Shown one piece after another: positions 8,842 through 64,000 of a DNA stretch of 64,000 bases. The notes under the pieces are model-generated. The model searched no databases. It was not told the DNA's origin and worked only from the letters and a program-made list of their open reading frames with translations. This stretch comes from Tubulanus polymorphus (Eukaryota > Animalia > Nemertea). Both the position numbers and the translations under genes were made by a program. Location: contig NC_134034.1 in NCBI RefSeq assembly GCF_964204645.1, forward strand, positions 6,670,914 through 6,734,913, given 5' to 3'. Within the stretch, counting starts at the first letter, position 1, and each line of letters opens with the position of its first letter.

Positions 8842-8849
8842 GTTTTCCT

Positions 8850-9682
8850 AATTGTAATTGACTTGAATCATTATCAATTTGTTGAATATCTCTTCTCGAT
8901 GTTTCTGGTGTTGAAGATCTTAATTGATCTAATCGATCTCCATACTCTTCCATTTCTGGATCAACATAAGTAGGATTTGAATTTGGATTTTTAAATGGTG
9001 AATATTTGTTAATATCAATACCAACATTTGGTTCTTCTTCATTTATTCTATCGAGTGCATTCCATATAATTCTGAGAAATTCTGTGCCACCTTTTGAATG
9101 TTCAATTGTAGATATGCTAACATTTCAGGTTCAAAAATATTTTCTTCACCCATTCTAGATAATTGTATTGATGCAGTTTTGTTATTTAATTCAACATTAT
9201 ATAAACCCATGCATCATTTTTAAATTCTAAATTATTCATGAAAAATGGGTAATCTTTTAAAATTTGCATTACAACACCTTCTGAATCAATTTCATCTATT
9301 ACATCTTTTGGTAATGATTCGTTAACAATTGTATCTATTACTCTACTTTTCATTCCATAGAATTGCCTTTTCAAATAAGGATGTGGTATTTAATAATTTA
9401 TTCATTAAATCTTTTCTAAATGTTACGGGTTTAATAACTTCCCATTCGGGAGCTGCCAAATATTCTTCAAATTCTTCACGCGTTTCGTAATCAATTACAC
9501 CATCATCTTCATCAGCTAAACAAGAAGTATAAGATGGATCATCATCTTCATCATTATTTAAATTATTATTATATGGTGCTCCATCATCATTATTGATACT
9601 AGTATCAGGAAAATTAAGTTGTGGTTCATCAGTTATACCGGGGGGCGTCACCAAAATTATCCAATGGAATTTCTTCATCCAT
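8850..9682 (-). pseudogene. Acidic Polinton protein of unknown function, frameshifted and cut by the DIRS end
   Basis: Probable true start MDEEIPLDNFGD at 9682 (TAAATG); pieces 9343-9678, 9186-9374, 8850-8953. Confidence 0.5.
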
Positions 9683-9699
9683 TTATATAAATAAAAAAT

Positions 9700-11098
9700 T
9701 TAAATTGAAAATATAATATTCCTCCAATTACAATTCCTATACAAGTTATAGCTAATTTAGTATTTTCATGGGATTTATTATCATTATTAGTTTTAATTAT
9801 TTTATGTTGAATAATATCAGTTTTTATATTTTCTGATGTATTGTAATCTTTTATTTTAGAATCATTATTTAATTTAATATTCTTAGTTTTAGTTTCTGTT
9901 GATTGAATATGTTTTTTAATTTTTTTACCTTCCGTTAATTTTGGAGCAGTGATAATCTTTTAATTTATGTCATTTAATCCAAATGAATTATTTATTGTAG
10001 CAGTTTTAATTAGATTATTATAACCAATTATATTTCCCATTTTTAAAACTAAATCATTAGAAATAATTAATAAATTAGGGCCTATACAATAATATAATCT
10101 AATATGTGACTTATCTAAATAATTTTTGTACCTGACTATATTTTCTGGAATCGATCTATTTTTATCATTGTGAATGGAATCTTCAAATAATACTTTAAAT
10201 TGTTTTTGTGTATCAAATGATGTATTTAAATTTCCAATTATTGGGGACTTGTTTCAACTTGAGCACCTAGAATACATATCAAATAAGTTCTAATTGATTG
10301 ATTTATTCTTTGTATACCAGCTTTAGTAAAACCTTCACTATTTTCTAAAATAAAATTAATCCAACCATCATTATTTTGTTATTGTTTGATATAAATATAA
10401 TATTTTGGTATTTCATTCCATTTAAACGTTTTTGAGTTAATATTTTTTATTGTTTTTCTATATTCTTTAGTATAAGGGACAGCAAAACCTCCGATTTGAA
10501 ATGGTGAATTATTCATTGCATCCATAGCTTTCTCTACTTTAGATAAATCTCCCCCTGTAATTGTTCCCATTTTTGATCTAAAATCAGAATTATTTATATC
10601 CATATTAAATTCATTACATATCTTATAAAACTTTGATAAATTAATACTTTTTTCTAATTCTTTAAAATATCTAGATCCTGGTAAAGGACACTCTAATTCA
10701 TTTAATATTAATCTTATTTGAAAGTATGTATGAAATCTAAAGAGTGAAAATATTAATGGTAAACTTGGTTCATTTAAATGATTATTCCAACTTATACCAC
10801 ACCCTGTTGTTGCACAATAAACTGCAAAATTTACTTGTTTTTGCCAGAATTGCATATTTGATTTTAACATCCATAATTTGGCTTTACTTAATTCTTTTTT
10901 AAAATTAATTTCATAAACATTGAATATATTTTCCATCTTTACATTAAAATTATAACTTTCAGTAACATAAATATCTAAATTAATTAATGAATCTAAAACT
11001 TCATTTCTATATGAAATATCTTTATTAAAATCTATTGCAGGAATATTATATTTAATTGATTTATCATATTGAAAAGCTTTTGGAAAACTAATTGCCAT
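9700..11098 (-). pseudogene. Conserved Polinton-lineage protein of unknown function with a C-terminal hydrophobic tail
   Basis: WQKQVNFAVYCATTGCGIS, FRFHTYFQIRLIL; after the stop at 10379, GFTKAGIQRINQSIRTY..ILGAQ; tail LAITCIGIVIGGILYF. Family recalled from invertebrate Polintons, not searched. Confidence 0.6.
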
Positions 11099-11201
11099 TT
11101 ATATAATAAAAAAATTAATAATTAATAAATTCTTTTAATAATTTATCCTGCTCTTCAACTGTTATGTTACCATTTAAACTTATTATATAATCTAATGTAT
11201 T

Positions 11202-20752: not shown

Positions 20753-21296
20753 TTTTAATCATGGTGTAATATAGCTTGTGCAACAGGACGTTGCGCAGTC
20801 ATTACGTTAATTGTGAGGTGTTTATACATAATAGTTTCATGAGCAGTTCATATGGTGGGATCATAATCGGGAAAGATCTGCCTTAAACATTTAATCGCCT
20901 TAGGGAGTTTGAGCTTCTTGATAAAATTCCCCAAAAATAATTCAAAATCGCCCTATCCAATATCTAAAGGCCATTCAAAGCAATATATTTTGTCAATTCT
21001 TTTTGAATTTATTCATAATTAATAACATATTTTTAATATTAATGATTTTATTATCAGGAATCTGATCTAATATATTTCTAGTGGTAAAACGTAGCTGTCG
21101 GATTAACGAGCAATTATCTCATTAATGAGATGATTGCTCGTAGGTCGGATGGATGGACATAGGTCGGATGGATGGACATATTGGTGTGTACCGGTCTACA
21201 GTGTCTTTAATCAAAGATCCCATTTGATATCTGTCGTATTTCTATGAAAGAGTACAAACAGAAATATAAACCCCTATACAGGGTACAAATCAGAAG

Positions 21297-24283
21297 TTAA
21301 AAATGTTTAATTGTTTGATAATGCTTTGATTTATGTGATCTTAAATATTTACCTCCGCAATAACAATACACTCTTTCATTAGGATTGAATTTTCTAAATT
21401 CATTATCTAAATCACATTGGATACCAATATCTTTAAAAGATTTATTATTAACTGATTCACATTGAATTCCAATATTCGATGAATTTGCATTATAAATTAT
21501 CTGTTCATTATCAAAATTAAAATAATATAATTGTCGTTTTTCAATTCTTAAGTCTCTATCATTGTAACCTTTTGAAAGTATTAAATCATCATTTCTTTCA
21601 TTTGTATATTTTAAACCACATTGCCAGGTTAAACCAGGACTTGAAAAACAATAACAGGGATCAACATTGAAATGATTCAAATTAACTTCTTTAAATTTTT
21701 CAAATATATCAGCCAATATCATAACATCTGATTTTAAATATAAATCTACTAATTCACCATGATTTTTTATCTTAAAATGATTCCAAATATTTAATGATCT
21801 TTTAAACACTTCATCTTTCACATACTCCTCTTTTAATTGATCATAAAATTGTTCTTTTAATAATATGTTACATTAAAATCATCATGTGTTTTATAAAATG
21901 AATAAGGAATTGCACCTTTAAATCTCAATAATTTAAAATCTTGTTCATTTGGATAATAATGTCGAGTTTTACCAAAATCATTATCAACTAAACTTTTTGC
22001 TAAATTATCTAATGAACTTGCTAAAAATCTATAAGAATCTAAAAATCTCAAACAACCAAATTGAAATGAAATGTAATTTTCAGATGTCTTAGCTAATAGT
22101 TTAAAATCATATTTTCTTACATTTGTATCATTCATAGCATTATATTCTTCTATTTCTTGATTAATTGCGCCCAATCTTCCTGATAATTGTTTTATAAATA
22201 AGTGGGTATCATAGCCTGATAAATTATGAAATAATATTGTTACGAAATTAACTTTCTTAGCTTGTAAATTGCAATCTTCATGAGCAGCTCCACGATATTT
22301 TGAATTTAAATGATCATGATCTCTAACTTTTTTATCAAATGAATAAAAACGTTTTTCACAGTAACAACAAAGAGTTGCATAATTAAAATCAAATTCATCT
22401 TCTTTTGTCATAACTATTCTTTTATTTTTGTTTAATAATTTTGCAAAATCACTTTCTTATTCAATTATTTTATTTCAAAATTCATTTACTACATCTTCAC
22501 CTCTAAAAGAAATATATTGACTTTGATATAATTCAGGATAATTTGATTTTATATGAATTCCATAAACAGCAGCTCTTTGATGAACTTTCTAATTGTATTT
22601 ATGAATGGTGGGTCTTGAATTATGTCTTCATTTAATTCATTTCCTTTGTCCATTGATTTAAGAAATTGCGTTTTGTTATATATTTTTTTTCTATCTTGAT
22701 CAGTTAATTCTTTATTCAAAATCCCCATAAATTATTACAAATGGTACTATATTTTTAAATTTATGATTAATAAATTTCAACTTACAATCTTTTTCTGTTG
22801 GCATTATTAATTTGCAAAAATCTTTATTATCACATAATTCTTTATGTTTTAATAATGCATTCTCAGTCATGAATTTAGATAAACATTTTCTACATAGATA
22901 AATTTTATTATTATGATGATCACTTTCTGTTCTAAAGAATAAATCAATTTGTTTTAACCACATATAATGTTCATTTTCATCTTTTTTGTAATATAACAAA
23001 TCTCATTTTCATCATCATAATACTCTGTTAAATATAAAGCTTCTAATGTATAATCTTTAATATTTTCACCTTCTCTGGTAATTGCATTAATTCGAAAACA
23101 TTTATTTTTAAATTATTAACTTTTTCTATCTTGGTATCATTTTTATAGTTACTGGATATTGATCAATTTTATATAATGTTTCATATTTCCGGTAATCTGT
23201 TATCCTACAAACATTTCCCTGAGTTGGATGTAAGCAACTATTAATTGCCCACAGAAAACATTTGTCTTCATTTTGAACATTTAAAATTGCTATTGATAAA
23301 AATGGCAATTCAATATAAGATAATGCTTTAATATCCTTTTCTGTTGTAAAGTTTCAATCATTTTTAAACATTGTTTTACTTTTTGATGCTTTATTCCTTT
23401 TTGTATTATAAACATTTAAATCTAAAAATATTATTTCATTCAATGTTAAACCAGAACCCTCAAATATCTTTCTTCAATATGTCTTTTAAATTCGTTAAAT
23501 ATTTTTTCTAATTTCTCTTTTATTTGTGTTTTTGAAATTATTTTTTCAGAGTGTGTTTGAATATTATAATACATTTTTAATTCTGATTTGATAAAACTTA
23601 CTTTTCCAGAAATACTAATTTTTGGATATTCAACATCTGTTACAAAATCTAGTATTTTTCCATGATTTCAATAAATTTACTATAATCTTCTATTGTTGCT
23701 CCTTTAAAAAATGTAAATATAATAGCTGCAGGCCCAATTTTACTACGTAATGTTTCTAAAATTTCAATTGTATCTTTTATTGCTGGTGAATCAATATAAT
23801 TTCTAACATTTTCCATATAAGGTTTATTTGAAATAGATTTAGTTTTTGAAACTGGTTTTTGACTTGTTGAGGTTTATCATCAAAATAATCTGTTCCTAAA
23901 ACATCATAACTTAAATTTTTGTTTGTGGTTTTGTGATTCGAGATGTCTTTTATAATTCCTTTTTGCTATAAATTTATTACACTTCACATTTTATTTCATC
24001 CACAATCATATTTTCTAATTGTTCTTTTCTTTCATTGGAATTTTCTGGTGTTTCAAAATCTATAACATTTTTTGTATGATTTGCAGTTTTTTCATGTCGG
24101 GCTTTATGAGATTTATCAATGTATTTTTTACAATATGTACAATAATATTGATTTTCATTAACATCAATTTTTTCTGTATGTTGTTCACTCTCTCCCATTT
24201 ATTAGAAAAAAAAATTACTTGTGGTGATGAGTGGTGTGTCGCCCTCTCGCCCTCTGATTTGAGCCCCTGATATTCCAATTACT
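21297..24283 (-). mobile_element. Polinton remnant B: 5' part of pPolB, internally deleted
   Basis: Colinear homology with 55200-57789: N-terminal zinc fingers, NVQNEDKCFLW, CRKCL, YGDFE, RDHDHLNSKYRGAAH..CNL, FHNLSGYD, RFLDSY, YLKSDV. Confidence 0.9.
24196..24283 (-). promoter_or_regulatory. Conserved ~90-nt upstream block shared with 59636-59723 (+)
   Basis: AGTAATTGGAATATCAGGGG.TCA...ACACCACTCATCACCACAAGTAATTTTTTTT..ATAAATGG in both; 3' half also at 60048-60085. Confidence 0.65.
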
Positions 24284-24450
24284 CAAACACATTGGATCGC
24301 TAAAAATTCGGTCCAAACACATTGGACGCCCGCACACAGTGGGCTTCAAAATCCTTCCAAACACACTGGATCGCTAAAAAGTTGGCACAAACACATTGGA
24401 CGCCCGCACACAGTGGGCTTCAAAAATCTATCCAAACTCATTGATCTGAC
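24284..24450. repeat. 74-bp tandem repeat, about 2.3 copies
   Basis: CAAACACATTGGACGCCCGCACACAGTGGGCTTCAAAA occurs twice. Confidence 0.8.
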
Positions 24451-28631: not shown

Positions 28632-29297
28632 ATGGGCAATGATAAGTATTTCACAGTCCACGAAGGCCGTTTAAAAAATGTTAACAAACAGACGATGAAA
28701 ACCCGCACCAAATTACGAAAAAAGGTTATTGTCACCAACGAACATTTGCGCAATGAAAACGAACGCTTTCAACGTGAATGCGAACATCATCAAAATATGG
28801 TAAATGTGGCTAGCGTACCATTTCGTAAAACGATGACCACTTTGCGAGGTTACCAGCGTGGTTTGAGGCTTTATCACCATGACACCGAAGCAGTCAGATC
28901 ATCGGTGGGAAATTTCGGTATTTATAACGGCATTCCTCTGGAAACGTTGCGCCGCAACGGAGAAACAATACGCACAAAATTGCAACGAGAAAATTATTGG
29001 GGTCGGAAGAAAGCAAATGAATTAATCGAAGTTGGACTTAAAAGAGGGAAAATCGTCGGTTTGAATGATGCAAAAAATCGTTTTGATGATATAATGGTCC
29101 GCATGCCGAAACCAAAAGTGCGTAAAACAGAGCTCGAGCAGTTGCTGGATGAAATAAGTGGAAAAATGAATACAGCGCTGCCACCTTTACGTAACCATAC
29201 TTTTGTGCAAGCTGATACAAGACAGCGTATGATGAATCTGAGCACTAGTTTACCCAATATAAATTCTCCACATATTCGATCAAAAACATTCGCTTGA
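28632..29297 (+). CDS. Intact 221-aa basic protein of unknown function, probable host gene
   Basis: Uninterrupted non-repetitive ORF; acceptor TTTTCTCCCAG 13 nt before the ATG; candidate donor GTAAGT at 28126; no TE motifs recognised. Confidence 0.65.
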   Translation: MGNDKYFTVHEGRLKNVNKQTMKTRTKLRKKVIVTNEHLRNENERFQRECEHHQNMVNVASVPFRKTMTTLRGYQRGLRLYHHDTEAVRSSVGNFGIYNGIPLETLRRNGETIRTKLQRENYWGRKKANELIEVGLKRGKIVGLNDAKNRFDDIMVRMPKPKVRKTELEQLLDEISGKMNTALPPLRNHTFVQADTRQRMMNLSTSLPNINSPHIRSKTFA

Positions 29298-47929: not shown

Positions 47930-49899
47930 GCGTCCAGAAATTACGTACCTCAAAATCTCCCGTTTTTCTGACCCCCTTGTACCACCTTTGTACCAAATTC
48001 ACTGACCACGCTCATAGGTACGTACCATGGTACCCATGACCTCCCCCCAAAGAACACAAATCAAAGCAAAATATAAACAAGAGGCCTACGGGCCTTGTAC
48101 CGCCATGGCGCAGTAGAAGAAGAATGATTCAGTATTCAAAGTTTTACAGAAATATTTACATTGTAACGATTTAACAAGTATTAAAATAGTTAAGATGGTA
48201 TAGGCTATGTGGCGATAATGTTCATTTTCTGTTAATATATCCTTACATGAAAAGATGGGCCCATTTTAGCTGCCCTGCAGAGATTCGAAAAAATGCAAAA
48301 AAATTCATCAAGATTTGGTGTAGGCATCGTGCTGAAAAGAAATCCAAGGTGGATGGCAACCCTGGTGACCATACTTGAACTCAATTTTCAATGAGGGGTA
48401 GACAATTCACCTACAAAAATTCTTACACCTTCGAGATGGCTTAACTGGCGGCCATATTTTAAAGCCGATGACCTCCATATACAAAAGGCATGGACAGCTT
48501 ACCTACCCCGATCCTAACACCAAATTTTGTGGAAATCCATCAACAATTGCGGGCTGCATCGTGCAAACAAGAATTTAAAATGGCCACCCCAATGACAGCC
48601 ATATTTGATCGCCAATGACATTTTTTTACAATAGGGGAGGATATCTCGCCAGACCCAATCTTCAAGCTAATTTTCAAAATGATTCATCGCAAATTACAGG
48701 CGAATAACGGTGTTGAATTCAATTCAATTCCAGAGGGCCTGGCCTTTTTGAAAAACCAGCACAGATGCCTATTTAAATCACATGAAATTAAAAAATTCAG
48801 TGCTTCGGTTGAGTATGTATTGCGACATAATGAATCATCCCTCTGATATTTACTGTTGCGCAAGTATGTATTACACATACTGGATCGCCGCTCTCTCACT
48901 GAACAGACGGCATATACAGAACGCTTAGGATTCATCTATCGAAACACAATTCGGAGTTAAGGTTTACAGTTCTAAATGTAAGTACTGTTTTTGTATTTAT
49001 TATGAAGTAGGGAAAGGGGTCTACTAAATATTTAACCTTTAAATATATTTATATTTAGTATATCTTTTAGATAGCTAGAGTTACCACTAATATCTTTAGA
49101 TTAATAAAATGTCATACGTGTCAAGAAGCGATAGAGAAACTCAAGATACTCTTTCTGAGGAATAGACAGCAATGGATTTCGAATCAATAGAAATTGGCGT
49201 AGAAGTACAAGAAACACAAAAGATCGACGAAGAAACTATATAAGAATTTCAAAAACATTTAGACTACTCCAAAAATTCCAATGTTTAAGTTTAACATTTG
49301 TTGTGCAGTTAAATATTTACCGGCAATTGAAAAAAATGTTTGTAATTATAAATTTTGTATATAGAAATCAAATGATGTATTGGATGAAACGACCGAACAT
49401 ACTTGTATATGTATTGTGTAAATCTGTAGGCGCAGCTTGGTGAATATTCTATGTTCGGTCGTTTCAATTATGATTGGCGCATGCGTATTAATCAAAAACG
49501 GGCCTGTATGCCCGGTTTTGCTCAGTACGCATACGTGTGAATATTCTATGTTCAGTCGTTTCAATTTTACAGAATAGATATATAATTATGATTGGCGCAT
49601 GCGTACTAATCAAAAACGGGCCTGTATGCCCGGTTTTGCTCAGTGCGCATGCGACACGGATATTGTAACTGGTATGATTTAGATATCAAGGAACCGAAAT
49701 GACTTATCAAAAGCAGCGAGGAATGAAAAAGGATGACGTTAGTCGAAGATGAACAGACGGAAATTATCAAATAGATTTCAAATAGAATAAAAAAATTCAT
49801 ATATTATAAATGGAAAGTAAACAGCCACAAATTATCAATATTACAAATAACGCTGGTGTTATAAATATTTATCAGAAGACATGTTGTGAATGTAAAAAA

Positions 49900-50585
49900 A
49901 GTATTGTGTTTGAATTATACTTGAAATATTTTCATCAGTTACTGTATCATATTCTAAACATATATTCGATAATTTATAACCCATATCTTTAATTATACTC
50001 GATATTAAAATTTCATCAACCGGAGCAAATGTTATCTCAAATATAATATCTTCTTGAATTGCGTATTTATATAAAGGTGCATTATTATTTATCAATTCAA
50101 AGTCTAATGGAATTTTATATTTGCTTCCATAAATCTTTTTGATCAAATTATCTACGTCATTAGTTACTACTGCATTATTAGCTTCTGATCTTAATTTATT
50201 TTGGTTTTATGATTGGATGCCTTGAAATATCATATTATTTCTATTTTCTTAACCATAAATCTTTATAGTGCGTAAATAAATTATAATCATCTAATGAGAA
50301 AACTGTTTCTTGACCAATCTTTATAGTTAATTTTTCAATCAAATATCTTCCAAAATTATCAACAACATAATTATTATTATTACCAGTTACATATATATCA
50401 GTCGATAAATAAATACTATTTGGAACATAAAAAGTATTTCGTGTTAATCTAGGGATTCTAACATATAAAGTTTAATCAGGATTAATATTAGAAGGGTTAT
50501 GAGTAATTATATGATGAGATCTTTATGTTTTAATAGCATTAGATATTCTAGGATTCTTAGAAGGATTTATATAACTCCCACTCAT
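49900..50585 (-). pseudogene. Major capsid protein (double jelly-roll type), N-terminal half
   Basis: MSGSYINPSKNPR..IITHNPSNINPD.TLYVRIPRL..VDNFGRYLIEKLTIKI..YKDLWL..IYGSKYKIPLDF..YKLSNICLEYDTV; recalled similarity to invertebrate Polinton MCPs; stops and frameshifts present. Confidence 0.7.
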
Positions 50586-50606
50586 TTATTTAACAAAAAA
50601 AATTAA

Positions 50607-51102
50607 TTATCTATTTTTTATCATATTCACTAACCCAAAAATAATAGCACTTACAACTGTAATTAAAAATAAAATAATATGTTCAGCAGCAAAGTTAAGA
50701 ATATTCCCAGCAGATTTTAAAACAAAACCAACAATCGATGCAATAACTCCGGGTAAAGCTGCAACAGATTTTTTAGATAGTTCCCATAAATATTTTGCTA
50801 ATTTTTTAAAACCATCCTTAACCTTATCTTGAATAGAGGTTTATCCGGTTTATTGGGAGTAGGTGTAGATTTCAATGAATTTGATATAGCTAAACCAATT
50901 GTTGTGAATACCTTAGTTACAGCTGTTAGAATTGAAAGAATTATTATTCCTTCTAATTTAAATAATAATTTTATTCTATCTTTTAATGATATTTCAGAAT
51001 TTGGTTTTATCAACAAATCTTTAAAAATAACTTTTAATCTATTAATATTATAATCATATGATTTTAATAATATATATCAATATTACCAACTTTATCATCA
51101 AT
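50607..51102 (-). pseudogene. Polinton hydrophobic/amphipathic putative membrane protein
   Basis: DRIKLLFKLEGIIILSILTA...LKKLAKYLWELSKKSVAALPGVIASIVGFVL; start codon decayed (TAAATT). Confidence 0.55.
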
Positions 51103-51120
51103 TTATTTAGCAAAAAAAAT

Positions 51121-51489
51121 TATTAATTAGTAAATTCATATGCTACAAATATAACAATTACAGTTCTACCTAAAATCCATATTATTTCATATTTCTGTTG
51201 TTCTTTACTTGGGGTATAATAATCTTCATAATGCATCATCAACTGATTGAAAATCTCTATGTCAAATTTTCTGATCATATAATTCTTTATTGATGTAATC
51301 CATATAGTTTTATCTCTTTTCTCTATATTCTTCTGCAGCTTTATTGTATTTCTCTAATGCTAAGTTATGTCTTTTTTGTTCTGATAATGATCCATTTTTA
51401 TCAATATGCTTAAATAAATAACCACCACCAGTAAATGCTAAAACGTTAACTATTGCTGACCCTATTATAGTTATAATTGCAGAAGCCAT
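51121..51489 (-). pseudogene. Small conserved Polinton protein, not in the ORF track
   Basis: MASAIITIIGSAIVNVLAFTGGGYLF..EQKRHNLALEKY; frameshifted; 3' boundary approximate. Confidence 0.55.
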
Positions 51490-51508
51490 TTATCTAACAA
51501 AAAAATTA
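51487..51508 (-). promoter_or_regulatory. Representative TAA-T7-N5-ATAAATG intergenic cassette (putative terminator plus initiator)
   Basis: TAATTTTTTTGTTAGATAAATG; equivalents at ATGs 9682, 11098, 24198, 50585, 51734, 52077, 62357 (-), 59721, 60083 (+), decayed at 51102. Confidence 0.7.
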
Positions 51509-51734
51509 TGCATTTATATAGGAGGAATATATTTTTGTTTTTCTAAATAATCAATAGTTAAATTAGATAAAGTAACTGCTAACGTTAATTTTAAAATATC
51601 ATTTATATCAAATCTATCAACATTAACACTTCCCATTTTAAATACTTTTTTAATACCATTGAATAACCAACAGTTCCAACTGATAGTAAGGCACTATTTT
51701 ATAAACCAGTTATTATCCACTTATTATCACTCAT
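51506..51734 (-). pseudogene. Small Polinton protein, not in the ORF track
   Basis: MSDNKVDNN...DRFDINDILKLTLAVTLSNLTIDYLEKQKYIPP; frameshifts. Confidence 0.5.
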
Positions 51735-51792
51735 TTATTTATCAAAAAAATTACTATCTTCAAAATATTTAGTTATCTTATTTATGATTATT

Positions 51793-52077
51793 TCAACATT
51801 TTATTTCATTACTACTTTTATGATTATCATATATTTTAGATAATTTATCTTTAATATCATCGATAATTCCATCTTGATTTAATTCATAATATTCTAAAGG
51901 CGTTTTAATTAAATCAATCACTTTTTCTATATTATAATTTTCTTTATTAATCATTGATGCATTGTTGAATGATTTACTTTTAATATCAGTAATTACATCA
52001 TTTAGTTTAATTCTCATTTCTTTACCATGTTTAAAATCAAACCCAAAACATATACTCGGTCCAACAGTTATATTCAT
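51793..52077 (-). CDS. Polinton hypothetical protein, 94 aa
   Basis: Open ORF starting at the T7-ATAAATG cassette. Confidence 0.5.
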   Translation of the reverse strand: MNITVGPSICFGFDFKHGKEMRIKLNDVITDIKSKSFNNASMINKENYNIEKVIDLIKTPLEYYELNQDGIIDDIKDKLSKIYDNHKSSNEIKC

Positions 52078-52094
52078 TTATACAGTGAAAAAAA

Positions 52095-52848
52095 TTACTC
52101 TCTACATCTTATAACTAATTCATAAATCACAGTGAAATTATTTAAATCAATTAAGTTACCATTATGATTGCTAATTATTAAATTACTAAATTGAGGAATG
52201 CATGGTTTGAAATCACATTCTGTTAAATTATAATCTATTTGCGTTCCAAATTCTTTAGCATTCTTCAATGGTAAAATATTCAATATACTAGAATTACAAG
52301 TTGTATCTTTAGTTGCTTCAAATGTTTTCGTTGGATCAATTAAATTGCAATAAATATAGAAGTGTGTTAAAGTTATTAAATTTTAATTACCATCTACGTT
52401 TCCTGTAACAGCATCTGGTGCAATTCCTAGCAATTTAGCTAATGGTTTTTTTTGCCATAAATGCATGTTGACTTTCATCATATATCTTTATTTTAATTTT
52501 ATTTGCGCTATCACTTTTTATAAATCTTATTAAAAATTTATCATCTCTTCTAATTTTCAACCGTGCTCTTCGATTAATTTCTTGAGCTAGTGTTTCTAAA
52601 TTATATAATCCTGGCTTTAAAATTAGATGAAACCATTTATTTATATTTCTAATATGAATTAAAAAAGTATTATCTTCAATAGTTTTATCCGTTATATTAT
52701 AAAAAGAATTACATAAACTTACGTTTACTAATTTTATATAAACACAATTCTTAAATTCTCTATCTAATTGTACTAGTAAATTATGTGATTCATAATTTGT
52801 AAGTCTTCTTGAATCAACAAATATTCTGTATTCTTTTAATTCTACCAT
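52095..52848 (-). pseudogene. Minor capsid (penton-like, single jelly-roll) protein
   Basis: IFVDSR, SFYNIT, PGLYNL, LAKLLG, FYIYCNLI, ILNILPL, NHNGNLIDLNNFTVIYELVI; frameshifts. Confidence 0.65.
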
Positions 52849-52862
52849 TTATTTTACATATT

Positions 52863-53165
52863 TTATTCGAAATCTATTTTATGGTGCCCTTTTTCATTCT
52901 TACCTTTGTATATGAAATAGAAATCTCCAGAGACATAATTCTTCTAAATCTTCACTTGATAATCTATTAAATCTATCTGGTAAATATGTTCTGAATTTAT
53001 ATGTATTTCCTTTCAATCCTTCATATTCTAAGTGGATAACTAATTTACTACCATATCTATTAGTAACTGTATCAATATTTGTAATTAGATATTTCTTATG
53101 AATTGTTTATTCTGTTAACTTCTTAAATTTATAATCTACTGATTTGACATTTGAAGTATCTTTGA
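52863..53165 (-). pseudogene. Small beta-rich Polinton protein, paralogous to 60083-60408
   Basis: FKKLTE..TNRYGSKLVIHL..FRTYLPDRFNRLSSEDL..IYKGKNEKGHHKIDFE. Confidence 0.6.
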
Positions 53166-53736
53166 AGTATCTAGATTAATATTTTAAGAGTAATAGGGAA
53201 TAAGTTGTTTCAGGTTAAAGGTTGAGAGGGATTTATAATATGAATATAATACCCTCTATGTCTTTATTGTCTTTAGTAGTTTTAGTACTTTAAGTACATA
53301 AAGAATAAATCTTTATATTATCAATACTTTAAAAATAAAATAGAACTACTATACTACTAAAGAGATAAAGACATAAATATATATATATATTACTGTTTCA
53401 ATAATAATATTTATTTATCCGATAGATTTTATATATTACTTTTTCAAAAATAATATTTTTCTTATTCCACAGATTTATTATATATATTTGATTCAGTAAT
53501 ATTTGTTTATCTCACAGATTTATTACATATTACTGTTTCAGCAATGATAAATCTGTGTCTTTATTGTCTTTAGTAGTTTAGTAGTTTTGAAAATAATTTC
53601 ATTCAGTACTTATAAAATAAAGATTTATTCTTTATGTACTACAAGTACTAAAACTACTAAAGACAATAAAGACACAACATTTGTGATATCTTTTATTCTA
53701 TCTAGAAATGATTTGCTGTTCTCACTGTTTGCTTGT

Positions 53737-56700
53737 TTACTCTCCATTTATAATAAATATTTTAATTAAAATTTGATTAACACGAATTAACACTAGAATT
53801 CTTTTCATAATCTCATTCTCTTTTGTTTCTTCTCTTTTAAATCTTAAGTGTTCATCTGAATTGCAACCATAAGCAACTGTGTGTATACCATCATCTAAAA
53901 TATATCTTTTATCATCAAATGGATTCAGACTTATCTTCTCTATCTCTTCAATAAACATTTCATGATCTTCAGATCTTAAACCTTTCATCTTATGTTTTCT
54001 AACTTGTTCATTGAATATACAATTGATGTAATCTTTGAAATGAATATTCTTTTCTACTACACTTTTGGTTATTCCTTTTAACTTTTTAGCTTCATGAGTT
54101 TTAGTTCTATAACTATACATTTTAGATCTAATACGAATGAACTCTATCATTTCTTCACCCCCTAATTCATCTTTGAATTTACCAGGCACCTTTTTACTAT
54201 CATTGTTAAACAATTCATGATCTTTAGGATAATAATACTAAAATCAAAATGATGTTTTAATGTTTTTAAATCATCTGTTATGTTATTAGTTTTTATCTTT
54301 AATATGTAACTGTCAGTATCAAAATATAAGATTTCTATATGCTTTTCTCCAAAACGAGGTTGCAATACGTTATAATAGAATTCATACATTAATAACTTTG
54401 ATATTGCTAAAACTGTAGCTCCAACATAAATTGGTTTATTAAATTGCATAGATGTTCTCCTCATTTTATCTGAAGCTAAATTTTCATCAAATATTCTGTT
54501 ACCTATGAACTTAGGATATGTTTGTAAATGTCTAATTCTTTTACCATTACTAACTAACTCAATATCATTTCTATTTCTTATATTTTCACAAGTCATTATT
54601 CATTAACTTGAAGAAGTCTTTTTCGAAATCAGTTTTAGCTTTAGTTCTCTGTTTGGTATTAAAATCTATATATTTTTCTAACCATTTAGATTGACTAAAT
54701 GAAATATATCTATTTACTTTTTTAGAACCATTCCTTGATTCAAATAAAACTTCAACATTCTATAATGTACTACATAATTATATTTATCTTCCTGAGTTAC
54801 CATTAACTTTTCTGTACGAATATGATTTTCGGGTTTAATTCTTTTTTGATAATTTGATAATTCTTCATGCGTTACAGTTTTATGTTCTGGACAGTATGCT
54901 AAATTTCTAGATTTAAAGTCTACAACAAAGAAGTTACCAGTCTCTGAATCATTTGCAATATCTAGAATTCTTTTCTTCCAATCAAATTTATCATTATTTT
55001 CATGTTGTAAAACTTCACTTATTTCAAATACTCCATAAGGCTGTGGTTCCATCATTGCCCAACCATATAGATTATTTGCATCTATATATAATAACTTATA
55101 ACCAGGGTTATAATTTACATTGAAATATCTATCACCTAATACACCTGAAACTCCTCCTCTTATAGATTTTTCAAATAATAATAATTGATCTATATTTGTT
55201 AACAAATCCATTTTTAAATCTGTAAATTTTAAACCACAATCCCAAGTTAATCCTGGTGATGAATAACAATGGCAAGGATCAATATTAAAATATTTTAGAT
55301 TTACATCTCTAAACCTTTCGAATATATCAGTTGATAATAATACGTCCGATTTTAAATATAAATCTCCTAATTTTCCATGATTTATTATTTTGAAAAAATT
55401 CCAAATATTCAATGTTCTATTATATACTTCATCTTTAACATATTCATTTTTTAATTCATCAAAAAATGGTTCTTTTAATAATTCAGTTAAATATTGAAAT
55501 CATTATGTGATTTATAAAACTATATGGAATTGCGCCTTTATATCTCATTAATTGAAAATCATCATTATTTGGATAGTGTTGCTTTAATATTCTTAATTCA
55601 TCATCAACTAATGATTTTGATAAATTATCTAATGAACTACCTAAAAATCTATATGAATCTATAAATCTTAGACACTCGAATTGGAATGATATATAATTCT
55701 CAGATGTTTTAGCTAACATTCTAAATTTATATGTTGGTATTTCATCTTTTGATCTATTTGAATTTAATCTTTCTATTTCATTATTGATTTCTTCTATTTT
55801 ATGGCGTAACTGTTTGATGAATAAATGAGCATCATACCCTGATAAATTATGAAATATTACTGGAACAAAGTTGATTTTCTTAGCTTGTAAGTTACAATTC
55901 TCATGCGCTGCGCCTCTAAACTTTCCATTCAAATGATCATGGTCTCTTATTTTTTTTTCTTTATAATTGAATATCTTTTCACAATAATAACATTTATCTG
56001 CAAACTCAAATTCTTCTTTATCTTCTTCTGTCATAATTATTTCTATACTTTCATTTAACTTTTCATAAAATTTTATTTCATACTCGATTAATAAGTCACA
56101 AAAATGATTGATAACATTTTCATTTCTGTAATTATAATATTCACTTTTAATTAGTTCTGGGTAATCAGATTTAATATATAATCCAAAACATGCTGCTGAT
56201 TGATGAATCTTTTTAATAGTATTTGCTATTGGTGGTTCTTCTGAAAAATCATTTTCATAGTTTAGTTTTTTTCTTTTATAATATATTTCTTTTCTTTCTT
56301 GATCAGTTAGTTCCTTATTTAGTAATTCAAAATCTCCATATATTACAAATGGTACTTTATTCATGTAATCATAGTTTTTGAATTCTAATATTTTATCCTT
56401 TTCATTTGGTAAAACTATTTTACAATAATCATGATTATCAGATAATTGTTTATGATTTAATAATGTACTTTCATTACTGAATCTATGTAAACATTTTCTA
56501 CATAGAAATACTTTATTGTGGTTATTTTCTGTTCTAAAAAATAAATCGATTTGTTTTATCCACAAACAATGATTTTCATAATATAATATATCTATAACAC
56601 CATTGGAGATGGAGATTTAAATACAAAGGTTCTAATGTATAATGTTCAATTTCATTACCTTTTGTTTTTGGCAATTTGATTAAATCAAATAAATTTATTC

Positions 56701-57789
56701 TTAAATTATTATCTCTTTCTATTTTTGGGATATTTCTAAAATCTGGATAACTGTCTATCTTAGACTGGATAATTGTCTATCTTATAATTATTTTCAAATT
56801 ATTTATAATTTGTTAATCTATAAGTATGTTTATTATAATCCTCAACTGGATGTAAGCAACTAATTATTGTCCATAGAAAACATTTATTATCTTCATTTTG
56901 TACATTTATAACAGCATTTGTTTTAAATGGTAATTTGATATAACTTGATCCATTTATATTATCATCTTAATAATATGATAAATTATTTTCATCAATTGGT
57001 TTTGATTTAGTTAACTTATTATATTTTGTATTGAACACATGTAAAGTCATAAATATTATTTCATCAAATATTAAACCAGATCCTTCAAAATATTTCTCTT
57101 CTATTTTAGTTTTTACTTCATTATAACATTTATCTAATTTATCATCTATATGTTTTGAAATAATTTGTTGTGAATGGGAATTTATATTATATATTGGTTT
57201 ATCTAAACTTTACTTTAGAAGATATGCTAATTTTAGGGTATTCAACATATGTAATTATTTTTATAATATTTTTCATATTTTCTAAATGTTTTTCATTTTC
57301 TTCTAATGTTTTTCCTTTATGAAATTTAAACTCAATAGCAGCTGGACCAATATCACTTATAAATGCTTCAGTTATCTCTATTTCTTCTTTATTATCTACT
57401 GAATTAATATAATTTCTTACATCTTCCATGTATGGTCTTTTATTGTTTAATTTATTTCTTATTCTTTTAATTGTCTTATGTTTCTTATCATTGTCATTAT
57501 CAAAATAATCTTCACCTAAAATATTATTATTCATATTTCTCATATGACTTTTAGATTTTAAATGTTCATTACGATATCTTTTATCACTGAATGATTGATT
57601 ACATGTATCACATTTGTATGTTTCTTTTTCATTCTTCAATTCATCTAATTTAGTTTCTAATATATCATCTTTATATTCTAACTTAAATTTATTTTCTAAA
57701 TTTGTTCTAGTTTTATTGTGTCTTGCATTTTGGGATTTATCTATATTGATTTTACATGTTGGACAGTAGTACTTCCTATTTGCTTCCAT
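53737..57789 (-). pseudogene. Protein-primed family B DNA polymerase (pPolB), near full length and fragmented
   Basis: N-terminal zinc fingers, EDNKCFLW, YGDFE, RDHDHLNGKFRGAAHENCNL, FHNLSGYD, SIRGG, YIDANNLYGWAM, KLMNN (YGK lost), KPIYVG, YFDTDS, PGKFKDE, KLKG, DDKRY. Confidence 0.95.
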
Positions 57790-57868
57790 TTTAATATCAA
57801 ATTTTTTATTAAAATTGATTTTAGAAGTTATTCATTTTTATATTATTCATATATATGAATATTTTAAG

Positions 57869-58020
57869 AGTAATAGGGATAATAGGGGTTCAGGTTAAAG
57901 GTTGAAGGGGCGAGTGATTAAAAAATGAAAAATAAATTCGAGCGTGTGAGAATTTATTTTTTATTTTTTATGAGCTCGACCCTTCGACCTTTGGCCTGAA
58001 CCCCTATTATCCCTATCACT
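57869..58020. repeat. ~150-bp imperfect palindrome upstream of pPolB
   Basis: AGTAATAGGGATAATAGGGGTTCAGG...CCTGAACCCCTATTATCCCTATCACT. Confidence 0.85.
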
Positions 58021-60082
58021 TACGCCCCTTTCTTTAAAGGTTTATTTGTTGTATGTCATTAACAATCAGTTATATAATACTTTATTCATAACTTTGAAGC
58101 GGCGCGCTGACGGCGAACGCTCAAACAAGGTCAGTCACGTAGGCCAACGATAACACGAAACAGACCACGGTTTTGCCGGTTAAGAGCGTCTCTCCACACA
58201 AATTAGAGGGGCTGTAATGGACCATTTGTTGACACTCACCTTTAATAAACTTCGTATGGATACAATCGAGATAATTCCACCCTATAGTTCCACTATTCAA
58301 CGATTGATGCGCAGCTTGAACATGGCGCCGCCATTCAATACGCTGGTCACGATGTATCTCGACACGCATCAAAATCACACTTGAATTACAAGTGTTGACT
58401 TATGGGAAACGATCGAAATCTAGCAATTTGGTTGGGAAAATATCAGCACTATAGTTGAAAAAAGTTGATAAACCTCCTCCGACTGTCTAATCATTTAAAA
58501 GCTTTGCCTTCACATGGAACTATTTCCGCCTTATAACAGGTGCACTCTGCCGCCGTGATTCGCCCATTCAACGATAAAAACTTTCCCACGGTCTTACTAT
58601 CGGCATTTTCTAATAATTTAGGGAAATGTTTAAAAAAAGCGAAATTTCACACTCTGCATTAATAAGATTAAGCTTAGAGTATTTATTCGTTTGACAAATC
58701 TTCCTCTGAACTCCCACCAACAAGTTTTAAGTAGCGACACGACCGTAGAAGTATACGGATTAAACATGAAATAGTATAAAAAGGGAGGGTCAGCACAGTA
58801 AGGGGATTGAAGAAAAGATCGAGAGTGGTGTGAAAGCCTAAGATAGGAAGCTGCAAGGTATGTAGGAGTGAGAATTGTATTATAAGCTGATGTTAGAATA
58901 AAGGAAGAAATATAGACCCACGAGAAGTCGTTAGTATTATTCTGGAGACAGTGGAATATCTCGAATCGGATTAACCCTAATACTCGGAGGAATTGAACAA
59001 CAACACGAGTGGAGAACACAAACCAACACCACAACATTGATGGAGAATACAGATTCACAACAGTAACCACACGATGATACACGAATAGAAAATGCGAAAG
59101 CGTTGTCAGAAATTGATTTGATTTGACATGTAAAATCGGAAAAAAGGTTAGCGGGTACAGCGAGTGTAGCGCAACCGTGTGGATTGTGTTTACAAACAGA
59201 ATGTCGAGCATGCGCACTGCAAACAAGATGGCGGAAATAAAATCGCTGCGACGATATCATTTATTTCATACTGATCCGCAGCTGAATTGTACTTTCAAAA
59301 AGATCAAACGATTTATATACGTAGGTTTCTTGGCATGTCCTGGGAGAACACACGCATTGTTCGTTATGTACGATAATACATTATCCGCCTTAATGGTTGT
59401 TTGTCGGAAACATTTATACTTGTACCAGACGAGCATTCTAAATCATTTGTAGGTAATCACGGCGCTGTAGTCATTAGAAAAATTCGTGGAAATGAGCAAT
59501 TATGAAATAAACTTATGAAACACTCGCTGACCCTTAGTCTGATAAATCGATTATAAGGAGTAATATTAAAGAGTAATATTAAAAAGTAATGTTAAAGAGT
59601 TTTATTATTTTTATTAATAAGAGTTTGTGTGTTTAAGTAATTGGAATATCAGGGGTTCATACCAGAGTACTAGAGTACTAAACACCACTCATCACCACAA
59701 GTAATTTTTTTTCCTTATAAATGGAAAGGAATGATGAATATAATAAAAAACTTATGTGGGGTTGGAAAAATTTACGGCCTTTAGACAAGAAAGAAAATCA
59801 AATCAAATCTAATAAACTAATAATAAATAATAATTTACAGATATATTTAGAATAGTTAACAAAGGCAAAGAAATTTATTGATCAATGGAACAATGATCCA
59901 AATAATGAACAATACGTTGAGGAATTTGATATCAAGGAACCGAAATGACTTATCTAGACAGTTATAATTACTGCTCCTAATAGATGCTGTGAGGCTTGGG
60001 TGAGAACGGTTAATAGCGTGTTTGTTATATACAAGGGGAAGTAATCCCACTCATCGCCACAAGTAATTTTTTTTCCTAATAA

Positions 60083-60408
60083 ATGGGAGATAGAAAAGTA
60101 TTCTTAGCAACAATAAATAACAGAATAAAACCAGCAAAAAACAATTTGAAATAAAAAAGTTAATTGATGTAACAAAAGAAATTGAACATAAGATATTGAA
60201 ATTAGAAAAGATAAAAACTAAATATGGAGAGAAAGTATCAGCTAATTTAAGCTACTGTAATGTTAGTACATCGCGAGAATTTAAAGTATTTTTACCTGAT
60301 AAATGGGTTTCATTGAGTACAGAGGAATTAAAATATTTAAAAGGATTTAAAATAATCTATCATGGAAAAAATGAAGACGGTCATCATGATTTAGAAATTG
60401 TTGATTAA
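60083..60408 (+). pseudogene. Small beta-rich Polinton protein (possible OB-fold)
   Basis: TAAATG start at 60083; KTKYGEKV..FKVFLPDKWVSLSTEEL..IIYHGKNEDGHHDLEI. Confidence 0.55.
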
Positions 60409-61751
60409 ATAAAAAATAAAAATAATGAATATCTAGAATCCAAAATGACCTTAGTCGTTTTATAAACAACTACAATCATACAGTCAAACATCTGTTACAT
60501 TTTATTATAAGAGAGTGCTTCATTTGAATATTGATCAATCAAACAGGTGTTGCACAACGTTGTTATATTGGATAGCTAGCAGTTATATAATAAGCACGCA
60601 GTACATACAACACACACAGGATACATTCTCTCTCTCTCGTTCTCTCTCTCGTGATTAAAAGGAATATTTCAATGTTTTTACGGTAAGTTTTAGCAAAACC
60701 ACCCGACTTGACTCACAGAGTTTTTAGGGGATAAGCATTCCGTTATTGAGAGGCGCCACGAGATACCTATCCCCAAGCATTTCTACTTACACCTCTGTGA
60801 CCCACACCTCACCAATTCTCCTTCAATGGTTGACAGGAAACACGTTATATTAAAGGCGCCTAATGCATTTCCTATCAACCCCTTACCCCCGAAAGGAGGA
60901 TCGAAAGTCGAAACTGAAGGAGAACCACGGAGGGTGGACAAAGGTGCATTTTCGAAATGCCCCTGCAAGCCAAGCCCGGCGGCACTCCAGTGGTTGAATG
61001 AATTGCCTTATATACTTAGCTAAAACACCTAAGTAAATGTTGCTGGTGCTAAAAAAATATGTGAAATTTGAAATTATAAATTATTCCGAATGAAAAGAAT
61101 ATAAGAATGAAAACTGATAAATGAATTATGGATTTTTAACTTAATTATGATATAATTTTTAATCAAATTAGTAATTAATTACTATGTTAATTGATTAACA
61201 AATTCAAATACAAATATTCATTTTAGCATCACACCCAGTGCTGCCATCTTTCAATTCAAGAAAAAACTAATAATAAGAAACGACTGTAATACAATATTCA
61301 AGTAAAAACAAAATAAATTAATAAAAATAATGAATATCTAGAATCCGAAATGACTTATCTGGACAATTTAATTGCTCCGCGTAGATAGACAAAAGTAGTG
61401 AGATATTCAATTAATTAAAAAAAATTATTTTTTTTGCTTTTTTTCTAAAATATTAATCCATTTTTTTTATTATCAATTTTGAATTTCAGAAGTATTTTCA
61501 TTTTTGATAGCAGTTGTTTCAGAATTATTTATATCATGAATTTTATTTGATTTCTTATACAAACTTCACCCAATCAAAATGAATACAATTACAAATCCAA
61601 CTGTAAAATATAGATATTTATCAAATATTCTATCATTAGAAAGGGTTGAAATAACAATATTTTCACTATTTTTATTAACATTTTTATTACTTATTTTTCT
61701 TTTACAGCTTTTTTATATTCTTGTGATTTAATTCCTAATTGCCGAGACCAT

Positions 61752-62357
61752 TCAATTTGTTTCTGTGATCTCGGTTTTTTCTTCACAGTTAATTCCTTCA
61801 CTTCTTTCACTTCGCTCATTTATTATAGAAATATTTTTACTTTCAATATTTGAAAATGTTATAACCCCGGTTGATAATAATGTCATAAATCCGCCTAATT
61901 GAAACGATAAATATCCAATCCATTTATTTAATTCAGTCATAACTAAATAGTCATTTTTTAAATCGGAATATAATCTATTTTCATCTTCAATTGGTAGTAT
62001 ATAATTACATAATTTACTATAACCTTTTACTACATTTTCTGATATCGCGTCATTAATTCTAGCTGTTCTCGCGGCTTCATAAATCTTAAATAATCTAATA
62101 ATTTCATCTGATTTCATTGTATCTAATTCATTATAAGTTAAATTTTTACCGACAAAATTTTTACATTTTCCAGATGCTATTAATATTTCTAATTGATGTT
62201 TTCAATAAAGATAATATTCATAATTATTATTTGTTGTAACATTATTTAAAGCACCATCATCTGGAGTTAATTTTGTTTCTGTTATTCCTAAATCATCTAA
62301 AGTTTTTTCAATTGGAACATCACCATTTTTAGATTTTATTTTCTTTTCACCTACCAT
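61752..62357 (-). pseudogene. Polinton hypothetical protein downstream of the ATPase
   Basis: Starts MVGEKKIKSK at a T7-ATAAATG cassette; frameshifts into ORF 61752-62117. Confidence 0.55.
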
Positions 62358-62387
62358 TTATATAACAAAAAAATTAGTTGTGATGTT

Positions 62388-62657
62388 GCAACTAGAATTC
62401 AACTAGAATGTAACTAGAATTCAACTAGATTAACAAGCTAGTTGAAATATTGTTTTTATTTGTTTCTTGTTAAATCTAGTTGATTTTTGTTCCAACTACT
62501 AATAACTAGAATTCAACTAGAACGTAACTAGAATTAAACTAGATTAACAAGCTAGTTAAAATATTGTTAAATCTAATTGATTTTTTGTTACAACTACCAA
62601 TAACTAGAATTCAACTAGAATGTAACTAGAATTCAACTAGATTAACAAGCTAGTTGA
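62388..62657. repeat. Intergenic array: three ~100-115-bp units built from 11-bp AACTAGAAT subrepeats
   Basis: AACTAGAATTCAACTAGAA(T/C)GTAACTAGAATT(C/A)AACTAGATTAACAAGCTAGTT x3. Confidence 0.9.
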
Positions 62658-62659
62658 AT

Positions 62660-63272
62660 TTAAATAAATTCATATTTAAATGGGTGTTGTAATCTAAATA
62701 GTAATTTTGATCTTTTAATATTTTTCAATTTATCCATATATTCATTATCTAAATCATGTGGAATAATATCATTTTCCTCAAGTGCATTTTTCATCGATTT
62801 TCTATCTTAATTGTATGTAGAATAAAACTAGAAATCTTATATTCTCCCTAAAGTCTTTAACAATTGAATTATATTTTTGATTTAAAACCCATGTTGTTAT
62901 CCCGAAATGTCTTCCAGAGAAAGCTAGATAACATAACTCGCTTTCTCTAACTTTTGAATCATGTAGATTTGCACAATCATCTATAATGAATAATGTATTT
63001 GATCCTTTATAAATATCAATTGCTATTTCAATACAATTATCTAAATTTTCTTTTACTGTTTTAGGATCTAATATAATAAATTTATTATTTCTAGTAATAT
63101 TTCTATCATAAGTTTGATTAAATTCGTACGTTGGGCAAAATAATACTATATTATCAAAATAGTTTTCATAAACAGTTTCTAATAAATTTAATATAAAATA
63201 AGTTTTTCCACAATTTGTTACGCCAGATATTAACATATTATGAGGCTCAAATATAAATAATTCCTTATTCAT
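62660..63272 (-). pseudogene. A32/FtsK-like DNA packaging ATPase
   Basis: Walker A ISGVTNCGKT, Walker B LFIIDD, SGRHFGITTWVLNQ, REN; frameshift near 62810. Confidence 0.92.
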
Positions 63273-64000
63273 TCATATATTTTTAATTTTACTTGATAAT
63301 ATCCATTCATTGAATTTATCTGGCCATCCAACCCATTTTACTAAAGAATATTTTTTTCTTTTAACAGTTTTTGTTTTTTATACTTTTTCAATTTTATATT
63401 CTTGTTCTAGATTTTTCAGTAGTTAGACTCAATTCTTCTTCATAAAAATACCCATAAACTTCTTCACCATCTAAATCTTCTAATTTATAGACATATGGTT
63501 TTGTTGTTATTACCTTTTTTATTTTATATATTTCTCTAGTAAAATTACGATCGTATCCTTTGTCAAATATCTTTTTATACTTAGAAATTCTAACATTTTG
63601 ACCAACTTTAAATTTAGGTTCACCAAAATCATCTACAAGAAATGCTCCATATAAATTATTCCAAACAATTTCAGCATTTTCAGGTTTTCTAGCATCAATA
63701 GGTCTCATTCCAATACAAGAATGATAAGAATTATTATATCCTTCTATCAATTTTGGTAAAACATCAATCCATTTTAAAGTATTATTTGCTGTAAAATATT
63801 TCCACATTCTTGTTCTTAATGTTCTATTAAATCGTTCAACAACTGCTGCTTTTTTATCCGATTTTGTTGAAAAATATTCAATATTATGATTATCTAAGAG
63901 TTCATGAACAAGTGAATTATCAAATTCTTTTCCATCATCAAATTGTATTTTTTCTGGTTTTAGTTTATCATCCGAAAGAAATTTTCTTAAAACATTTGAT
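63273..64000 (-). pseudogene. Retroviral-like (rve) integrase with C-terminal chromodomain, 5' part outside the window
   Basis: IQFDDGKEF, KAAVVERFNRTL, YNNSYH..IGMRP, FKVGQNVRISK, GYFYEEEL; after a frameshift LVKWVGWPDKFNEWI. Confidence 0.95.

Follow-up and report, generated by a model that had tools for sequence, protein, structure and literature searches.

A Candidate Poxvirus-Type Promoter Cassette Before the Genes of One Clade of Animal Polintons

Introduction

Virophages are known to borrow promoters from the giant viruses that help them. The late promoter of Cafeteria roenbergensis virus (CroV) stands at all genes of Mavirus, and Sputnik shows the same borrowing (PMC6723459; here and below, sources are cited for their accessible passages), while Phaeocystis globosa virus virophage (PgVV) Gezel-14T carries the early motif of its helper (10.1101/2022.07.28.501842). 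In this work we describe a cassette of about 20 bases that precedes most genes of four broken Polinton/Maverick remnants in the nemertean Tubulanus polymorphus, within 64,000 nucleotides of contig NC_134034.1 (positions 6,670,914 to 6,734,913, hereafter the window, in whose coordinates all features are given). Like the three viruses above, these remnants stem from small integrating or satellite double-stranded DNA viruses whose genes carry what may be the promoter of a giant-virus helper. Unlike them, the host is an animal and not a protist, the motif is of the pox type and not of the Imitervirales type, and the helper is inferred and not demonstrated.

In animals, the Polinton-like viruses (PLVs) AHEV_PLV1, AHEV_PLV2 as well as CBEV_PLV1 have been reported from the occlusion bodies of entomopoxviruses (Barth et al. 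2024, PMC11296320), and are likewise proposed to be hyperparasites of poxviruses. The evidence in that case is co-occurrence in occlusion bodies, and these PLVs, compared here by description only, differ from our elements in having no rve integrase. The main text of that report makes no mention of promoters, and its supplement holds only two unrelated TAAATG matches. The pGKL1/pGKL2 pair offers another parallel, as these protein-primed linear elements use a TAAAN initiator and 5′ poly(A) leaders (PMC6211774), but pGKL2 encodes its own polymerase and capping enzyme, the upstream element of the pair resembles poxvirus early promoters, and genes for capsid and integrase are a trait of the Polinton family studied here.

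Animal Polintons/Mavericks (Polintoviricetes, adintoviruses) share with our remnants a family B DNA polymerase that is protein-primed (pPolB), the rve integrase, the A32 ATPase and the double jelly-roll capsid. Whether they live as autonomous nuclear viruses, transposons or virophages is debated, and the literature searched gave no evidence for a helper at the level of sequence. Neither did that literature, which left most subscription papers outside its coverage, yield a paper on animal Polinton promoters: the word “promoter” is absent from the accessible parts of PMC8502044, 10.64898/2026.06.19.733378, 10.1101/2024.03.23.586382 and 10.64898/2026.10.13.758929, and occurs in PMC4542343 in the reference list only. 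Within these bounds a pox-type promoter cassette in animal Polintons is unreported, although promoter borrowing and poxvirus-associated PLVs are already known.

A Cassette in Fixed Register

In its strict form the cassette follows the pattern AA-T(6-10)-N(3-7)-TAAATG, of which ten copies occur in the 17,640 bp of element DNA and none in the remaining 46,360 bp of the window. In 1,000 dinucleotide shuffles of the element DNA the same pattern appeared 0.10 times on average and twice at most; both the pattern and the element borders were chosen after inspection of the sequence, and the gap between observed and shuffled counts is large. On its own, TAAATG is mildly enriched in element DNA (54 vs 38.0 in the shuffles) and AATTTTTT is not enriched (18 vs 21.9), so the signal lies in the pairing of T-run and TAAATG at a fixed distance. 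Across the ten copies, T-runs of 6-9 and spacers of 4-7 nucleotides add up to 13 nucleotides in eight cases and to 14 in two. A preliminary description of this DNA had already placed the ten copies correctly and had the lengths of the T-runs right, but its spacers of 4-6 nucleotides were too narrow a range.

On the minus strand, T-run cassettes stand in the first remnant, R1 (9680..9700, with the A of the ATG at 9682), and before a conserved Polinton gene without assigned function, of about 400 amino acids in relatives (11096..11116, ATG 11098), the pPolB gene of the second remnant, R2 (24196..24216, ATG 24198), the major capsid gene (50583..50604, ATG 50585), a small gene with a hydrophobic N-terminus (51487..51507, ATG 51489), a small broken gene (51732..51752, ATG 51734), a 94-aa open reading frame or ORF (52075..52097, ATG 52077) and a conserved gene of the 211-aa type (62355..62375, ATG 62357). 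On the plus strand they precede the remnant of an HNH/endonuclease VII-like gene (59703..59723, ATG 59721) and a remnant homologous to the L025:5551 gene of a relative (60065..60085, ATG 60083). As previously noted, a decayed minus-strand copy at 51102 (51098..51121) keeps the T-run and TAAAT with no ATG after them.

Four further starts carry a variant in which an A-run replaces the 5′ half of the T-run: a plus-strand start (49790..49812, ATG 49810) and, on the minus strand, the starts of a putative minor capsid (penton) gene (52846..52868, ATG 52848), of a gene downstream of pPolB (53745..53767, ATG 53747) and of a gene whose cassette sits within the upstream ORF (61817..61839, ATG 61819). 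The first two had been taken for bare TAAATG and the last two overlooked. Counted from the ATG, both variants carry A at position -18 and T at positions -12 to -10. In total, and leaving the decayed copy aside, TAAATG opens 14 of the 16 curated starts in the window. The exceptions are the packaging ATPase and the pPolB gene of the third remnant, R3, which has an A-run core (57787..57810, minus strand) and an initiator off by one base. At internal ATGs, TAAATG is seen in 36 of 595 cases. An A at -30, seen in 13 of 15 window starts, was discarded as a further element, as it recurs in just 7 of 18 starts of relatives.

It had also been claimed that the leading AA is, in several cases, the stop codon of the upstream gene. 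For a long frame of the window this is clear only at 52077; in relatives, the leading TAA ends the upstream frame at two A-run sites, with gaps of 16 and 17 nucleotides. Mapped reads at three cassettes show 73 differences, among 40 of which none falls in TAAATG, none substitutes a base of the T-run and three lie in the spacer, a tally too weak to count. A block of about 35 nucleotides upstream is common to three different genes (24198-24290, 59630-59721 and 60045-60083), two of which share about 90 nucleotides, and suggests a promoter unit copied between genes. A scan of Rfam gave 0 matches.

Conservation Across One Polinton Clade

A pattern specific for the pPolB of these elements retrieved nine metagenome loci, the longest relative contig measuring 7.2 kb. 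Both pPolB pieces of the window, together with L027 and L030, group with L023-L026, L028 and L029 (support 0.90, 173 columns), and the same clade without L027 and L030 reaches a support of 0.96 over 696 columns; L031, a 1.1-kb fragment, stays outside the tree placement. The nearest named protein comes from Mytilus edulis (support 1.0).

In six loci of this clade TAAATG opens 17 of 18 curated starts, the L023 integrase being the exception, and 17 of 19 when the starts of the six close loci are called mechanically. The corresponding figures are 14 of 238 in 21 more distant IMG/VR loci, 1 of 86 in 14 Maverick-like contigs from GTDB, and 10 of 129 in 13 AT-rich control loci (upstream AT 0.84 vs 0.91). 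Systematic use of TAAATG is missing in 35 of the 36 more distant pPolB-related loci that were sampled (15 of 324 starts). The difference between window and AT-rich controls is significant (14/16 vs 10/129, Fisher p 2e-11, kinship uncorrected), and clade loci set against distant and AT-rich ones make the signal specific to the clade and not an effect of base composition. Enrichment over shuffles and over other Polinton clades, which had been proposed as a check, was thus found on both counts (10 copies vs 0.10; 17/19 vs 10/129 starts), chance and AT bias are ruled out as a source, and the cassette is conserved across one pPolB clade of animal Polintons.

Outside that clade in the pPolB tree, whose deep nodes have weak support, a distant Polinton (L011:1-9034) with 29% pPolB identity, whose integrase gene includes a chromodomain, uses TAAATG for 7 of its 7 starts. 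Four Polinton-like contigs of IMG/VR (L003, L005, L009, L018) carry TATATA-rich stretches just 5′ of the ATG, reminiscent of the late initiator of African swine fever virus (ASFV). Nearly the same element recurs in three separate metagenome records (L023, L025, L026) with long open pPolB frames, and may be recently active or a free virus. In IMG/VR no close relative came up for the ATPase, for the 11098 protein and its alignment, for a capsid alignment or for the clade pPolB pattern, and neither did GTDB give a match to the clade-specific pPolB pattern.

Likeness to Poxvirus Promoters and to Other Viral Signals

The late promoters of vaccinia virus consist of a T-containing core, 5-7 bp, and TAAAT(G) (PMC5294985), in which the T at ten bases upstream of TAAAT is conserved, while the intermediate promoters have instead an AT-rich block at 15-19 nucleotides (PMC11980589). 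The cassette shares with both classes a T-rich core, a short spacer and a TAAAT(G) that overlaps the start codon. Most T-run cassettes of the window have the T at -10, as late promoters do, and the A-run variant, which is the dominant form in relatives, resembles the intermediate layout. The earlier identification of TAAATG as a poxvirus-type initiator agrees with the post-replicative initiator, and does so clade-wide. There are also differences, since the cassette described here lies in an integrated animal Polinton in which no RNA polymerase was seen, and it precedes pPolB too, whose counterpart in poxviruses is an early gene. The exact cassette pattern opens the A-type inclusion gene of an orthopoxvirus in L094. 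TAAATG stands at 4 of 4 starts there, a sample of four from a locus that was itself located with the pattern. The asfarvirus link that had been drawn for the initiator did not survive, as the late initiator of ASFV is TATA (PMC7163114) and not the TAAAT of the Polinton cassette.

TAAATG is by no means confined to poxviruses. Among 41 fetched loci resembling nucleocytoplasmic large DNA viruses (NCLDVs), it opens 36 of 125 starts in eight non-redundant loci that we label iridovirus-like by gene content and genome size, and 80 of 316 starts in 18 other NCLDV-like loci. In one of the former, L165, ATAAATG opens 7 of 15 genes. Iridoviruses, which infect invertebrates and have a proposed cytoplasmic late phase (PMC5294985), are an alternative helper, absent from the preliminary description. 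Aquatic invertebrates are among their hosts. The layout nevertheless speaks for poxviruses: TAAA floats in the iridovirus-like loci, abutting the ATG in 36 of 125 starts, lying 1-10 nucleotides away in 62 and missing in 27, and in the Polinton clade 31 of 34 starts have it fixed at the ATG; AA precedes the abutting TAAA in 34 of 36 iridovirus-like starts, vs TA in 13 of 31 in the clade; and the T-rich block at -12 to -10 is present in 28 of 31 clade starts but in 9 of 36 iridovirus-like ones. The pox layout fits best, with non-pox NCLDVs as runner-up. An invertebrate iridovirus or other non-pox NCLDV as the helper, which is a special case of transcription by a large DNA virus and does not add to its probability, strikes us as unlikely.

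As a separate observation, TAAA lies at most 10 nucleotides from the ATG in 98 of the 125 iridovirus-like genes (L165-L177 and L183), almost always as AATAAA where it abuts the ATG, a habit that is not described in the accessible passages of promoter reviews.

A Probable Promoter Rather Than an RNA Signal

A TAA that abuts the ATG, an AATAAA that overlaps the start in 13 of 33 cases and a T-run that looks like a polypyrimidine tract could all be taken as signs that the cassette acts on RNA, through stop-start reinitiation, as a trans-splice acceptor or as the poly(A) signal of the upstream gene. The details are hard to reconcile with any of these roles. The upstream stop coincides with the TAA of TAAATG in 0 of 13 tandem gene pairs; an AG lies within 12 nucleotides of the ATG in 3 of 33 starts, and the single window start concerned differs in 1,000 of 1,026 reads; and TATAAA is as common as AATAAA. 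Splice acceptor and stop-start coupling were rejected on these AG and tandem-stop counts. Moreover, divergent gene pairs in L027 and L030 leave 26 and 28 nucleotides between their ATGs, with all four starts reading TAAATG around one shared A/T tract, and at these pairs a poly(A) or reinitiation role is excluded because there is no upstream gene on either strand. First genes likewise carry the cassette with no gene upstream on their strand. An RNA-level role is thus the least credible of the explanations weighed here.

The T-run had been compared with the vaccinia early terminator TTTTTNT. This comparison fails, for intact genes of relatives contain the motif 23 times in 24 kb (synonymous shuffles give an expectation of 30.2), including 5 and 7 times within two pPolB genes. 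A weaker proposal, compatible with a promoter, is that the T-run also terminates the upstream transcript, in the manner of ASFV, where over half of the mRNAs end at about seven T (PMC7163114). Intact coding strands do have few runs of at least seven T (1 vs 7.6 expected), but those of at least seven A are depleted in intact genes as well (17 vs 34.7 expected), so that the T-run may or may not have an ASFV-like role. Many gene ends have no T-run, and the same holds for the A-run junctions and for a convergent pair in L028 whose gap is zero. T-runs also precede genes without an upstream neighbour on their strand, and at 52088 the run lacks one base in 182 of 554 reads. Such an additional terminator function seems improbable to us. 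We read the T-run rather as a promoter core, since it occupies the position that this core has in late promoters (PMC11980589, PMC5294985).

In R3, pPolB, the next gene and the putative penton gene follow the A-run form, and the block that ends in the capsid gene follows the T-run form. This division could reflect two temporal classes, but it is only a suggestion, because in R2 and L028 pPolB has the T-run form.

Which Polymerase Reads the Cassette

We propose, at slightly better than even chances, that each gene has the cassette as its own promoter, and that a cytoplasmic large DNA virus supplies the RNA polymerase and the post-replicative factors that read it. The A/T tract at about -18 to -10 would be the core element and transcription would start within TAAAT, where slippage of the polymerase would add a 5′ poly(A) leader and make the poor context of a T at -3 (31 of 33 starts) irrelevant. 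Our main reason for preferring a viral polymerase is that a start in TAAAT would leave no 5′ untranslated region except where the polymerase itself supplies a leader, which those of poxviruses and pGKL do (PMC6211774). Integrated copies would stay silent until the helper infects the cell, as in the case of Mavirus, whereupon the element would rely on proteins of its own, namely pPolB, integrase, ATPase and capsids, for replication, packaging and integration. Among possible helpers a pox-like virus is the likeliest, a more tentative proposition with the chances against it.

The main competitor is a compact nuclear promoter read by the host RNA polymerase II (Pol II), perhaps with a factor from one of the element's unassigned genes, the likeness to poxviruses being a matter of convergence or inheritance. 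Host DNA does contain these elements in abundance, integrated in the nucleus, two control Mavericks (L041 and L042) encode TBP and TFIIB, so that some Polintons bring general factors along, and Polinton transcripts have been reported in corals and insect cells (PMC11131425, PMC5803895). The geometry of the cassette, however, is awkward for Pol II. Taken as TATA boxes, the stretches from -6 to -1 and from -18 to -10 would each put the start of transcription downstream of the ATG at the spacing usual for Pol II. The T at -3 is the opposite of the purine preference of control elements (98 of 129 starts in the 13 AT-rich loci), the divergent pairs leave only 26-28 nucleotides, and the elements with TBP and TFIIB have no TAAATG starts. 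The short spacers that had been invoked against Pol II are by themselves a weak argument, because promoters can lie inside upstream genes. On balance we regard transcription by Pol II as a serious but rather unlikely alternative. In the two control contigs the TBP (PF00352) and TFIIB (PF00382) genes are adjacent (L041:13597-14797 and L042:8684-9906), both contigs being Maverick-like sequences inside bacterial metagenome-assembled genomes.

A poxvirus-like RNA polymerase could also be encoded by an intact or partner element, as pGKL2 serves pGKL1, with no giant virus involved. The precedent is attractive, as pGKL combines pPolB with a pox-related RNA polymerase, a TAAAN initiator and poly(A) leaders, but the same source notes the lack of any report of such genes from Polintoviruses (PMC6211774). 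As had been stated before, no RNA polymerase is visible: among the clade proteins scanned (17, 31 and 18 in overlapping sets, all from incomplete elements), there was no match to an RNA polymerase, capping enzyme, viral late transcription factor (VLTF), TBP or TFIIB. The 211-aa gene, considered as a hidden transcription factor, had no match in the atlas, modelled poorly (pLDDT 46) and found no counterpart by fold. The family also has capsid, ATPase and integrase genes, none of which has to our knowledge been described in pGKL elements. A self-supplied polymerase is in our judgement quite improbable, even though no complete family member is among those seen.

Several points weigh against the proposed reading by a large DNA virus. 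Helper dependence is inferred, and with no complete element among those seen and several genes of unassigned function, a factor encoded by the element itself is possible. The T at -10 of TAAAT, present in 11 of 14 TAAATG starts of the window, is found in just 8 of 17 in relatives, and the L023 integrase, the window ATPase and the R3 pPolB start without TAAATG. The poxvirus starts measured are the four of L094, and the NCLDV counts given above show that TAAATG is not specific to poxviruses. Other animal Polintons are reported to be transcribed in coral colonies (PMC11131425) and in virus-screened Sf-RVN cells (PMC5803895), promoters being no part of those reports. Finally, a high-copy germline family is easier to explain by nuclear autonomy.

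The Remnants and Their Surroundings

The window copies are broken relics of Polintons with pPolB, A32 ATPase, rve integrase and capsid genes. With approximate borders, R1 spans 8845..11200, R2, the 5′ part of a pPolB gene, 20900..24260 and R3 49700..57860, all on the minus strand, and R4, possibly more than one remnant, 59660..64000, with one piece on the plus strand (59660-60450) and another on the minus strand (61030-64000). The R2 pPolB piece matches PF03175, and the window pieces are 72-74% identical to intact relatives of 1,319-1,365 aa; the R3 gene (53740..57789, minus strand), in several broken frames, has 74% identity to one of 1,363 aa. A pPolB relative of 1,693 aa (P0182) contains an intein and LAGLIDADG domains (PF14890, PF14528). 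The ATPase gene, also broken (62663..63272, minus strand), matches PF04665 (E 4e-13), and the integrase gene, cut at the window end (63397..64000, minus strand), is 69% identical to the L023 integrase, itself a match to PF00665.

The broken capsid gene (49862..50585, minus strand) is represented by a model of an intact natural relative that is 75% identical to the window piece (P0298, pLDDT 66). The model is a double jelly roll that matches the capsids of iridovirus and Paramecium bursaria chlorella virus 1 (PBCV-1; E 3e-13), with Mavirus and Sputnik capsids ranking below those of NCLDVs. The 52848 gene has a weak match to DUF5901. No maturation protease was recognised among the scanned window and relative proteins, which are pieces, and self-comparison of the window gave no paired element ends, such as the terminal inverted repeats and 6-bp target duplication of Polintons, the remnants being truncated. 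Same-species DNA reads cover R3 roughly 100-1,500-fold in 1.9 Gb, and 52,879 of 61,341 of them are less than 95% alike to it, which suggests many old copies.

Palindromic insertions resembling miniature inverted-repeat transposable elements interrupt or flank R3 (53169-53674 and 57849-58020), with sequence common to 26628-26716. Elsewhere, a GC-richer, retroelement-like block (3303-8046) ends in a 447-aa ORF without a Pfam match, which by eye resembles a tyrosine recombinase of the DIRS type. A tandem repeat of about 183 bp forms two inverted arrays (12493-13200 and 16107-17586), and a 221-aa ORF at 28632-29297, also without a Pfam match, is possibly a host exon.

Implications

Animal Polintons differ among themselves in how their genes begin: systematic TAAATG is missing in 35 of 36 distant loci, L011 has it throughout, and two elements encode TBP and TFIIB. 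A pox-type promoter in one clade, set against TBP/TFIIB or starts in a purine context in others, suggests that the lifestyle of these elements varies from clade to clade, and that 20 bases are enough to tell it. A more speculative picture, which on the sequence evidence we hold to be possible although the odds are against it, is that this clade represents endogenous virophages of an undiscovered poxvirus-like lineage infecting invertebrates, with intermediate-like (A-run) and late-like (T-run) promoters activated only by the helper, of which these promoters would be a fossil record, and with the initiator of L011 adopted independently. If true, transcripts with 5′ poly(A) leaders would be expected to depend on infection, an unknown large DNA virus of invertebrates may exist, and the Polintons of this clade might play in animals an antiviral role like that of Mavirus.

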